Origin: Candidatus Woesearchaeota archaeon
Lineage (GTDB): Archaea; Nanobdellota; Nanobdellia; SCGC-AAA011-G17; GW2011-AR17
Direction of reading: 5' to 3'
NCBI GenBank assembly: GCA_964372745.1
Contig: CAYJSK010000001.1
Coordinates: forward strand, 1-27,461
DNA length: 27,461 bases
In this document: piece by piece, positions 22,234-25,248 of the stretch
Layout: the number at the start of each line of letters is the position of its first letter
How positions within the stretch are numbered: position 1 is the stretch's first letter
Notes under the pieces: generated by a model
Databases searched by the model: none
What the model saw: the letters and a program-made list of their open reading frames with translations, nothing else
What the model was told of the DNA's origin: nothing
Translations under genes and position numbers: made by a program

Positions 22234-22335
22234 TTACTCGTCATCCCAATCATCATCTTCATCATCAAACCCATCATCATCCATATCATCATCGTCTTCT
22301 AATTTGTATAAAGGTTGTTGTAAGAGATCTTTCAT
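22234..22335 (-). CDS. 33-aa hyperacidic microprotein (start reassigned from 22560)
   Basis: GGAGGAG SD just upstream of ATG 22335; MKDLLQQPLYKLEDDDDMDDDGFDDEDDDWDDE; CTTAAATA box at 22380-22387. Confidence 0.65.
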   Translation of the reverse strand: MKDLLQQPLYKLEDDDDMDDDGFDDEDDDWDDE

Positions 22336-22441
22336 GATATCTCCTCCTGATTTTGTTGCGAGCTTGGTATCAGAATATCTATTTAAGCTTTCGCTTTTTG
22401 AATAGGGATGATTTTTAAATAATTCTCCCTTTACACTTGCA

Positions 22442-22963
22442 ATGGAAGAAGAAATGACGTTTACAGCAGTTCCAGAAGAAGAAAAACCACTCTGGAAGAA
22501 GATTTTTGTTGCCTTACTAGCATTATTTCTTCTCTTTCTTATCTTAGGATACTTTCTCATCCCTCTTGATATTCTTGCAAGCCTTATTGATAGTGAAACT
22601 ATTCATAATGGACTTGTAAAACAAGAAGTTTCTGTTTCTTTTGAAAATGAAAGCTATGAAGTCTTATTGGAGAAGTATAATAGCCACCTGAGTGAAGAGT
22701 TTAAAGTCTGTTTAATGGGAGTATACGATGGTGAATACCATGTTACTTCTGTGTATGATGTCGTGATGTATGAACAAGCATTTGATCATGTTGTTTCTGA
22801 AGCATGCCCGGAAGAGACACTTATTGCGCTGCATTCTCATCCCTACAGACAATGCCTTGCTTCTGCACAGGATCTCAAAACCTTAGAAAAGGCACAAGAA
22901 GTTAATCCAGATGCACTTATAGGTGTCATGTGTGAACCTGAAAGGTTTAGTTTTTATGCTTAA
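22442..22963 (+). CDS. Membrane-anchored JAB/MPN+ (JAMM) metalloprotease-domain protein
   Basis: TM at about aa 21-45; EEFKVCL Glu; exact H-S-H-x7-S-x2-D motif HSHPYRQCLASAQD at 22832-22873. Confidence 0.8.
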   Translation: MEEEMTFTAVPEEEKPLWKKIFVALLALFLLFLILGYFLIPLDILASLIDSETIHNGLVKQEVSVSFENESYEVLLEKYNSHLSEEFKVCLMGVYDGEYHVTSVYDVVMYEQAFDHVVSEACPEETLIALHSHPYRQCLASAQDLKTLEKAQEVNPDALIGVMCEPERFSFYA

Positions 22964-23229
22964 GCAAGGTCTCTATGTGTCTCATAGAGGAAGGCTGCTT
23001 GTTCATTATATTTTTTTATTGCCTTTGTCATTTGTTTAAAAATGTCAGTGGAGTTTATTTCTCCTTTTTTTGCAACCCAAGCATTCATCTCTTTACATAC
23101 TTTCTCACATATTTTTTCTGCTTCACTATGTTTCATTCGTGTACCTAGACACGCTGCATAACAGGAAGCATAGACTTTTCTTTCATCAAAATGTTCTTCA
23201 TGGCCTTTTCTTTTTACAATATGTTTCAT
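22960..23229 (-). CDS. Stand-alone ATP-cone domain protein
   Basis: MKHIVKRKGHEEHFDERKV...INSTDI matches the ATP-cone VxKRxG..FDxxK pattern; GGGGTGA SD. Confidence 0.8.
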   Translation of the reverse strand: MKHIVKRKGHEEHFDERKVYASCYAACLGTRMKHSEAEKICEKVCKEMNAWVAKKGEINSTDIFKQMTKAIKKYNEQAAFLYETHRDLA

Positions 23230-23233
23230 ATTT

Positions 23234-23944
23234 TCACCCCAAATTTATTGTTCCATTTGCTATGAGTATGAGTAACCAACCCATTGCGACTAATAGTAAA
23301 CCAATACATAAACGCATCATCCCCCTGTTCTCTTGTTTCCATTTCTTTACGTTGTAAAGACTTTTTCCTGAAACAACAAGCAAGAGTATAATGACTAATG
23401 GAGCAACAAAGATGATGTTGTATAAAATCAAAAGCATAAAGGCAGTAGCATCAAAGTACTGGGATAAAAGAGTAATAATTGCAAGATAAGGAGCTCCTGT
23501 GCATGGTAACTCTACTGCAGAAACAAAAGCTCCTAGAAACATTATTCCAAATACTGTTGTGCTAGTACTCAGATTATGCAACTTTTTTGCAAAGTACCCG
23601 GGAATTACAAGACTAAAGCCCTTCCCATACCAAAAATAATCTTTTATTTCTAAAATACCTGCAGCTATAATTAAAGCTCCCACACTTAATGAAATGTACT
23701 CTGTAACCCAGAGAGGAATATTTGCTAGGAAATACATTAAGCCAAGACCTGCAAGAAAATACACTGTAAACACGGAGAAAATGTATAAGGATCCAAGAAA
23801 AAGCATTCTTGATATTGATTTTCCTCCTCCAAGTAACACAGAAAGCATAAGAATCAATACGCCTATTGCACAAGGATTAATAGAATCTATTGCTGCTGTG
23901 GTGACTACTACCGTGAGTGTTGGAATGTATGCTTCAACTGCCAT
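23234..23944 (-). CDS. CcdA/DsbD-family transmembrane thiol-disulfide transporter
   Basis: AAIDSINPCAIGVL and AVELPCTGAPY redox Cys pair; about 6 TM. Confidence 0.85.
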   Translation of the reverse strand: MAVEAYIPTLTVVVTTAAIDSINPCAIGVLILMLSVLLGGGKSISRMLFLGSLYIFSVFTVYFLAGLGLMYFLANIPLWVTEYISLSVGALIIAAGILEIKDYFWYGKGFSLVIPGYFAKKLHNLSTSTTVFGIMFLGAFVSAVELPCTGAPYLAIITLLSQYFDATAFMLLILYNIIFVAPLVIILLLVVSGKSLYNVKKWKQENRGMMRLCIGLLLVAMGWLLILIANGTINLG

Positions 23945-24719
23945 GGGCCTCTCCTTTTTCTTCAGCTATTCTATAGGTCCCACAGATATGTTCTGTGCTT
24001 TCTTTCTCTTCTGCAAACTCAATAATGATACAGTCTCCTGGAGGAACTTGACTATATGGGGAAGGAATGTAATCTAGAAAATTTTCTACTTTGTTTTGTA
24101 TGACTCTTTCATTTTCTGTTTTGTATACAAAGACTTGTAAAAATCCATTACATTGTTTCCCATTTTCATAGTTTACAGCTCCCTCATTTGTCATCAGCGA
24201 TATAGCGCTGGAGCTTATTTCTCCCCCAACAGTCTCTATAAAATGTTGAAGATTTATTTTATCCATATCATCTATAACCCCTTCAATATGTATACGATCA
24301 TCATTATGTTCATGAAAAAGATTTGTTCCTATTTTATTTGAAAGGCCATCAGGATCCATAAGATTGAGTTTTTCCCCACATGCCCAAATTTCATAATCTG
24401 CGTGCCAATGGACGGGGCCAGAAGACTCTGCATTGAGATTCATATAAATCGTGGAAATAAGAAGAAATAGGGTTGTAAGGATTATAGGAATGATTAGGGT
24501 TAAGAAAACTAGTTTTTTCTTTTTCTTATAAAAATGAGAAAGAGATACTAAAATTAGAGCATTTGCTGAAGTTAAGCCAATAAGTACTAAGGATATTTTT
24601 GTTAAAACTTCAGGAGAAATAAAATCTTTTTTGTGTTCTTCTTCATGTGCAAAAGCTAGAGGAAGAATAAAGAGAATAAGAAATACATAAACAAATACTC
24701 TGATCACACTCTTTTGCAT
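23934..24719 (-). CDS. Exported/membrane protein with HWHAD and HEHxDxxIH motifs (start reassigned from 24836)
   Basis: Signal MQKSVIRVFVYVFLILFILPLAFA-HEEEH, two further TM, then a soluble domain with His motifs and 4 Cys; overlaps the ccdA-like start by 11 nt. Confidence 0.75.
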   Translation of the reverse strand: MQKSVIRVFVYVFLILFILPLAFAHEEEHKKDFISPEVLTKISLVLIGLTSANALILVSLSHFYKKKKKLVFLTLIIPIILTTLFLLISTIYMNLNAESSGPVHWHADYEIWACGEKLNLMDPDGLSNKIGTNLFHEHNDDRIHIEGVIDDMDKINLQHFIETVGGEISSSAISLMTNEGAVNYENGKQCNGFLQVFVYKTENERVIQNKVENFLDYIPSPYSQVPPGDCIIIEFAEEKESTEHICGTYRIAEEKGEAHGS

Positions 24720-24807
24720 TTTTCTTTTGGGAGTGTTAAGAATTAATAAAGTTTTTGTCCTTACGAAAGAAAAAGATTTATAAAGTTGAATGCTTGTTAT
24801 TTGTTGA

Positions 24808-25248
24808 ATGGCAGCAGCTGCAACAGAAACGTTCATTATTCTTCCTGCTATTGCTATGGGTTTGATTTTAGGGATTTATGAACTCTATTTATTAAAAGGT
24901 GATGAAGCCTTTCAAGGCTCACATTGGTTTAGTCATGGGCTCCATATTTTTCCTCTTCTGATTATTGCTTCCCTTGCATCCTTCAATATTAATTTCTTCC
25001 AACAAATGATTGGAGCATCTTTACCTGCACTCTTAGAAAATGATATTTTATTGCGAGTTGCAATTACCCTTGTAGTTACGGTTAAAGTTTACATTGGTTC
25101 AGCAGTCGTCCCTGGAGCTTCAGGTAGAGGAATGCATGAGAGTATTATACATTGTCTCATTATCGGTGCACTTATAGGAATATCTCCTTTCCTTTGGCCT
25201 TTTGTCGAACCAGTTGCACCAACATGGTTAGGTGGGAGTGGAGAGTAA
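24808..25248 (+). CDS. Four-TM membrane protein with His clusters
   Basis: Hydrophobic helices; GDEAFQGSHWFSHGLH and MHESIIH; TTTATAAA about 24 nt upstream. Confidence 0.75.
   Translation: MAAAATETFIILPAIAMGLILGIYELYLLKGDEAFQGSHWFSHGLHIFPLLIIASLASFNINFFQQMIGASLPALLENDILLRVAITLVVTVKVYIGSAVVPGASGRGMHESIIHCLIIGALIGISPFLWPFVEPVAPTWLGGSGE

Follow-up and report, generated by a model that had tools for sequence, protein, structure and literature searches.

JAMM/MPN+ enzymes are the textbook cytoplasmic erasers of ubiquitin-like tags and, to our knowledge, every one that has been characterised biochemically works either in the cytoplasm or inside a target cell. DPANN archaea depend on other cells and do so via their surfaces, and we know of very few annotated surface enzymes in these organisms. 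A woesearchaeal gene in the stretch of 27,461 nucleotides analysed here (the window) raises the question of what a JAMM protein held in the membrane would act on, and on which side of it. An active site predicted to lie outside the cell would imply either an extracellular substrate with a ubiquitin-like (Ubl-like) extended tail or isopeptide bond, or a new envelope function. We infer the topology, disulfides, zinc binding and peptidase chemistry discussed below, and put at roughly 0.6 the probability that the protein is an (iso)peptidase that faces outward, is braced by disulfides and acts on an envelope substrate close to the membrane.

The complete coding sequence occupies positions 22442 to 22963 of the forward strand (stop codon included), exactly the coordinates given in the original prediction, and encodes a membrane-anchored JAMM/MPN+ protein of 173 residues, P0001, that is conserved in 67 species-level loci. 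One gene caller had placed the start at M5 (169 residues), but the homologs align from M1. A TATA-like box, TTTTTAAATAA, was read directly from the sequence at positions 22412 to 22422 of the same strand, about 25 nt 5' of the ATG at 22442, and is taken as a putative promoter on the grounds of archaeal promoter geometry. Given that the homologs align from M1 and that TTTTTAAATAA lies at this distance upstream, the sequence suggests that translation starts at 22442 (M1), not at M5, on a leaderless mRNA made from the gene's own promoter. The protein starts with a predicted cytoplasmic tail (residues 1-20, positions 22442-22501) that is acidic and ends in K15...K19-K20. It is followed by a single transmembrane helix, predicted to be a signal anchor (residues 21-42, 22502-22567), which was located by Kyte-Doolittle hydropathy and appears in the AlphaFold model as a helix over residues 17-39 with pLDDT 90-98. 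A short juxtamembrane helix with conserved G/S47 and S51 (residues 43-51, 22568-22594) connects the transmembrane helix with a minimal MPN+/JAMM catalytic domain (residues 62-173, 22625-22960), which was assigned from fold, profile and structure matches. All these features lie on the forward strand.

The AlphaFold model of P0001, built on an alignment of 133 sequences, had a mean pLDDT of 95.4, and its top Foldseek matches were all JAMM enzymes, namely the Caldiarchaeum Rpn11 homolog, AMSH/Sst2, Rpn11, BRCC36 and CSN5. When the model was compared in an all-against-representatives structural search (VIA-align), the Z score for Rpn11 was 11.3 (rmsd 2.3 Å over 108 residues) and those for PfJAMM1, Cap3, AfJAMM and RadC 2QLC were 11.2, 10.1, 8.8 and 7.3, respectively. 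The family profile matched Sst2 in the PDB with an E-value of 1.7e-5 and also matched AMSH-LP, Rpn11 and AfJAMM, with the motif in register. P0001 alone matched Pfam Prok-JAB with an E-value of 0.06 and 13.7 bits (the cut-off being 25 bits) and gave no match in an NCBIfam search. Of the 133 relatives, 61 matched the same Pfam model at E ≤ 0.01, the best of them at 1.9e-6, and a precomputed annotation as PF14464 exists for two relatives. Because the profile, model and structure matches at the family level agree, and despite the weak single-sequence Pfam score, residues 62-173 are modelled as a minimal, peptidase-type MPN+ domain. An MPN fold had been presupposed by the original prediction, and structure prediction (AlphaFold, Foldseek, VIA) returned one. 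On the predicted fold and the complete motif, P0001 would be a member of the JAMM/MPN+ superfamily (MEROPS M67; the Pfam clan with JAB, Prok-JAB and RadC).

The intact E...HSH-x7-S-x2-D motif that had been reported was found again. It consists of the predicted general base E86 (codon at 22697-22699) and the segment H131-S-H133-P-x3-C138-x2-S141-x2-D144 at positions 22832-22873, in which the H131-S-H133 codons fill 22832-22840 and the D144 codon ends at 22873; H131, H133 and D144 are the predicted zinc ligands and S141 the predicted oxyanion serine. In the alignment of the 133 relatives, which has a mean column identity of 26%, the residues E86, C90, G93, H131, P134, C138, S141, D144 and C164 are invariant (133/133), C122 is kept in 132 sequences and H133 in 131. 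Since the active site is thus under strong purifying selection, the family is read as an enzyme and not as a pseudoenzyme, with activity predicted.

The side of the membrane on which this domain lies was judged from three features of the sequences. The best hydrophobic 19-mer of P0001 spans residues 21-39 (mean Kyte-Doolittle value 2.98) and there is no second such stretch; K19-K20 directly precede it, so that the single transmembrane segment preceded by KK was correctly described, and there are no K or R residues within 15 residues C-terminal of the helix. All relatives have kept a single strongly hydrophobic helix (median hydrophobic span 22 residues). Over the family the mean number of K+R within 15 residues was 3.4 for the N-terminal flank versus 1.15 for the C-terminal flank, the former exceeding the latter in 119/133 members and the order being reversed in only 4, and in most members KK, KR or RK abuts the helix on its N-terminal side. 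The second feature is the N-terminal tail, with a family median of 27 residues and 5 K/R. Several members have tails of 50-70 residues that are highly basic or of low complexity, and since basic tails of this length without a signal peptide should not cross the membrane, they point to an N-in orientation. Thirdly, two clusters with 75% mutual identity carry a GGACT/AIG2-like domain of about 115 residues before the helix (Pfam E 2e-18), again without a signal peptide. One is a GGACT (PF06094)-TM-JAMM fusion of 278 residues (L001:5001-5837), a single called gene on a 387-kb groundwater contig, and the other is represented by P0114. A GGACT domain without a signal peptide should stay in the cytoplasm, which argues for N-in/C-out. 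All three sequence arguments (flank charge, N-terminal tails and GGACT fusion) agree, and the predicted N-in/C-out topology, which was also the original reading of the protein as outward-facing, is supported.

The main rival to this reading is that the domain faces the cytoplasm (N-out/C-in) and that P0001 is a membrane-tethered desampylase or Ubl-processing JAMM. It keeps this rank because the source genome has no soluble JAB: no other JAB-like gene was detected in the 1.06-Mb, 93.5%-complete genome, which does encode one E1-like ThiF, at a contig end, and a P0001 working in the cytoplasm would close this evident gap. The similarity of P0001 to PfJAMM1 is also as high as that to Rpn11. The location of the characterised JAMMs, given at the outset, also speaks against an outward-facing domain, and AfJAMM is a cytoplasmic JAMM that has a disulfide of the C138/C164 type. 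P0001 itself has a short N-terminal tail with a net acidic charge; tails of this kind can sometimes be translocated, so in principle this one could cross the membrane. The orientation would, however, run against the positive-inside rule in the 119 members mentioned above, and the basic tails and GGACT domains of relatives, which have no signal peptide, would have to be translocated. In addition, no ThiS/MoaD-type Ubl was found in the genome, where the sole match to the ThiS model (PF02597) was the TGS domain of a 639-residue RelA/SpoT-like ORF, although small divergent Ubls can escape such a search. A Ubl or E1 neighbour occurs in 0 of the 67 loci, among whose 121 direct neighbours no ThiS/MoaD, ThiF or E2-like protein was found, so that P0001 does not belong to any recognisable Ubl module. 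Finally, the soluble JAB paralogs found in the phylum branch apart as a clade of their own and lack the cysteine quartet described below. Taking both sides together, we regard a cytoplasmic active site as unlikely.

P0001 contains four cysteines, all C-terminal of the helix: C90 (codon at 22709-22711), C122 (22805-22807), C138 (22853-22855) and C164 (22931-22933). They had been noted as possible disulfide partners, and we propose the two pairs C90-C122 and C138-C164. C138 is the 'semiconserved' JAMM cysteine, at position H+5, S-3, which corresponds to C74 of AfJAMM, and C164 is placed on the strand after the S/D helix as is C95 of AfJAMM. In the crystal structure of AfJAMM a C74-C95 disulfide joins the HxH-to-Ser loop to the strand after the helix (PMC300881). 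At the other two positions, eight soluble Nanoarchaeota JAB paralogs have F/Y/L (position 90) and L/F/A (position 122), hydrophobic residues as expected of positions that are in contact, and none of the eight has the cysteine quartet. The weak matches of the phylum scan comprised soluble JABs of 140-167 residues lacking a hydrophobic helix, a single RadC-like protein, and two additional lineages with an anchor, L081/L082 (L081:324-836 and L082:319-831) and L095 (L095:349-879, with P0192-P0195). Both lineages are membrane- or signal-anchored and about 20% identical to the main family. All four cysteines are retained in L081/L082. Within the L095 lineage every member has C90 and C122; three also have both C138 and C164, while P0192 has lost these two together and has P and H there instead. 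Because the cysteines are gained and lost pairwise and AfJAMM provides a precedent, the pattern fits two predicted disulfides and lends support to the earlier idea.

A small maximum-likelihood tree, made without outgroups from other phyla, placed the anchored lineages on one side of a branch with 99/97 support and the eight soluble Nanoarchaeota JABs on the other, so that within the phylum P0001 did not group with ordinary soluble JABs. The split is consistent with a single origin of anchoring together with the cysteines. Genes for disulfide formation were also considered, the source genome encoding VKOR and a CcdA-like gene lying 0.3 kb downstream of the JAMM gene. VKOR was detected in 52/100 genomes with the family and 111/301 without it (52% vs 37%; odds ratio 1.85 with kinship ignored). 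Since only 52 of the 100 family-carrying genomes have a detectable VKOR, it is not a required partner and its co-occurrence was rejected as support for the disulfides; linkage of a CcdA-like or VKOR gene within 6 kb, seen in about 7/67 loci, was likewise too rare to be used.

The preferred reading of P0001 as an outward-facing (iso)peptidase can be put as a series of predicted steps. The 20-residue cytoplasmic tail and the one transmembrane helix would hold the MPN domain at the outer face of the membrane (type II), where the C90-C122 and C138-C164 disulfides would stabilise it extracellularly. By homology with AfJAMM, Rpn11 and AMSH, Zn2+ would be bound by H131, H133 and D144 (PMC300881). The zinc-bound water would be activated by E86, and the tetrahedral intermediate would be stabilised by S141 as in AfJAMM and Rpn11. 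An extended small-residue tail fits into the narrow groove of the JAMM fold (PMC3239186), and the bond cut would most likely be an amide bond (peptide or isopeptide) at the end of such a tail in a membrane-proximal envelope substrate. Instead of desampylation in the cytoplasm, the outcome would be that a surface protein or cross-link is matured or released.

An improbable variant of the same topology is an extracellular isopeptidase that would cut γ-glutamyl/ε-lysyl-type cross-links of an envelope polymer, or remove an unrecognised extracellular Ubl-like tag. The polymer might be the archaeon's own surface layer or the pseudomurein/peptidoglycan of a tightly apposed host. The γ-glutamylamine cyclotransferase family, GGACT, acts on γ-glutamyl-ε-lysine, and the rare GGACT fusion would then be a Rosetta-stone link from cleavage outside to recycling inside. 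If true, this would be the first JAMM chemistry outside a cell in DPANN host or envelope biology.

Whether the domain stays attached to the cell depends on the fate of the hydrophobic segment, which might be a cleaved Sec signal peptide that releases a soluble JAMM exoenzyme able to reach host surfaces. Signal peptides, too, have an N-region such as this one with KK and then a hydrophobic core, and in the L081/L082 lineage the hydrophobic region is shorter and V-T-G comes next. The median hydrophobic span of the family is, however, long for a signal peptide, and P0001 has no small-residue -3/-1 cleavage motif after the helix. The conserved juxtamembrane helix 43-51 is confidently modelled and packs at pLDDT 94, which suggests that it is part of the mature protein. 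Given the length of the span and this helix, an uncleaved signal anchor is favoured and cleavage appears quite unlikely. With an uncleaved anchor the tether is very short, the MPN domain beginning about 20 residues past the helix, so that the predicted catalytic domain would stay only a few nanometres away from the membrane of the cell itself. This weakens the suggestion, made in the original prediction, of an action at the host interface.

The least probable of the readings considered, and in our view a very unlikely one, is that the domain faces outward and is no peptidase, being instead a RadC-like JAB that acts on nucleic acids or nucleotides in a scavenging set with a surface SNase nuclease and a TctA-like permease. 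The JAMM gene sits between the TctA-like permease gene and a convergent ATP-cone gene, with the SNase and TctA genes just upstream, and a RadC JAB model was weakly matched by 9/133 relatives. Iyer et al. (2011) make the case for nucleic acids or nucleotides as substrates of some JABs (PMC3239186). The RadC structure, however, scored well below the Z of 10-11 reached by peptidase-type JAMMs, and the nuclease activity of RadC is itself unproven. The TctA/SNase neighbourhood was moreover restricted to close kin, TctA being a direct neighbour in 3/121 cases. Clustering of 910 ORFs from 69 loci gave no conserved neighbour recurring beyond the closest relatives, and a Pfam search of the 121 direct neighbours returned scattered tRNA synthetases, transporters and regulators. 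A Cap3-like defence role was rejected given that the PADLOC JAB and NCBIfam Cap3 models gave weak, generic JAB matches only and that no CD-NTase/Cap2 operon was present in the window or among the direct neighbours in the 67 loci.

Several other features of the surroundings were recorded. Directly after the JAMM gene, positions 22960-24836 of the reverse strand hold genes for an 89-residue ATP-cone protein, a 236-residue CcdA/DsbD-like membrane protein and a 300-residue exported His/Cys protein with HWHAD/HEHNDD motifs. This trio is missing from the otherwise syntenic AR17-type relatives L002-L004, which indicates an insertion or a deletion. At the distant locus L001 the GGACT-TM-JAB gene is followed, some 3 kb downstream, by a VKOR gene and a DsbD_TM/SfLAP gene. 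Between the TctA and JAMM genes of the window there is a gene for a hyperacidic microprotein (22234-22335, reverse strand). It is kept in the same-genus genome G029 (L079, about 2720-2830), in which the JAMM gene is missing and a 350-bp spacer shows an Asp/Glu-rich reading frame. Elsewhere in the source genome there is a stand-alone GGACT gene (G000:C82:4285-4662), and the 639-residue ORF mentioned above (G000:C11:11811-13730, reverse strand) has an N-terminal RelA/SpoT-type HD region in addition to its TGS domain. Long RSH-like proteins are unusual in archaea, and the ORF may reflect bacterial gene transfer.

There were 41 close relatives of P0001 and at least 215 clusters at 50% identity, all from Woesearchaeota/Nanoarchaeota, and the family is thus restricted to this clade. 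The 67 loci in species-representative genomes, which were recovered with a 24-sequence alignment as query, are labelled Woesearchaeota, Nanoarchaeota or Nanoarchaeia with a few exceptions, which we took to be mislabelled metagenome-assembled genomes. In an even sample of 401 high-quality genomes from the phylum, a strong full-length match was present in 100, nearly always as a single copy and across many families. One Nanoarchaeota genome has two tandem anchored copies, one full-length and one more divergent (G353:C3:665571-666592). In G029 the gene is absent from the syntenic interval between TctA and the next gene, and a search of this site found no gene remnant. Spread over many families yet absent without a remnant from a genome of the same genus, the anchored JAMM gene is old but dispensable. 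No longer or fused form above 303 residues was found, which is weak evidence. Pfam and NCBIfam have no model dedicated to the family, and one JGI record names a member 'proteasome lid subunit RPN8/RPN11'.

No description of the anchored JAMM family or its architecture was found in the literature searched, in line with the original prediction, whose author did not recognise the architecture as described. Present in about a quarter of the sampled Nanoarchaeota genomes, the family makes the surface biology of DPANN approachable, and its small, defined and easily expressed ectodomain is a tractable point of entry. It would also be a clean natural example of cysteine pairs arising together with the predicted export of an otherwise cytoplasmic fold.

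Among the known systems that resemble P0001, CBASS Cap3 is structurally similar (Z 10.1); Cap3 is soluble and cytoplasmic, whereas P0001 is without CD-NTase/Cap2 context. Identity with RadC-like JABs was rejected on the same Z score comparison as above (7.3 versus about 11 for the peptidase type) and because the N-terminus of P0001 is a membrane helix and not an HhH domain. According to Zhang et al. (2012), the prokaryotic JAB domains known before their study were all intracellular; the Tox-JAB toxin domains that they describe were the exported exception and are the published case of JAB domains leaving the producing cell (PMC3482391). Tox-JABs differ in being the C-terminal cargo of large RHS or secretion-system proteins, with immunity genes, and in their proposed action, possibly as nucleases, within target cells (PMC3482391). 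P0001 is a stand-alone protein of 173 residues with no conserved neighbour in the 67 loci and no DUF4329 match, and a Tox-JAB identity was rejected.

The best structural and profile matches were Rpn11, AMSH, CSN5 and BRCC36 together with the Caldiarchaeum Rpn11 homolog (6FNO), and the catalytic residues are identical. The eukaryotic JAMM deubiquitinases differ by their Ins-1/Ins-2 insertions, by acting in cytoplasmic complexes and by binding ubiquitin, and their identity to P0001 is only 15-22%. The archaeal enzymes AfJAMM (AF2198, 1OI0/1R5X), PfJAMM1 (5LD9) and HvJAMM1 share with P0001 a minimal MPN domain, about 110 residues long, that lacks the eukaryotic insertions. All are soluble cytoplasmic proteins whose substrates are SAMP/Ubl conjugates, whereas P0001 has a predicted N-terminal signal anchor and no Ubl partner was found in its genome or neighbourhood. 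An archaeal desampylase of the HvJAMM1/PfJAMM1 type is an unlikely identity for P0001, given the conserved hydrophobic helix, the predicted N-in/C-out topology and the split from the eight soluble Nanoarchaeota JABs. With AfJAMM the E-x45-HxH-x7-S-x2-D spacing is identical (E22 to H67 in AfJAMM, E86 to H131 in P0001) and C138 of P0001 falls at the disulfide cysteine C74, and to this arrangement P0001 adds the proposed pair C90-C122.
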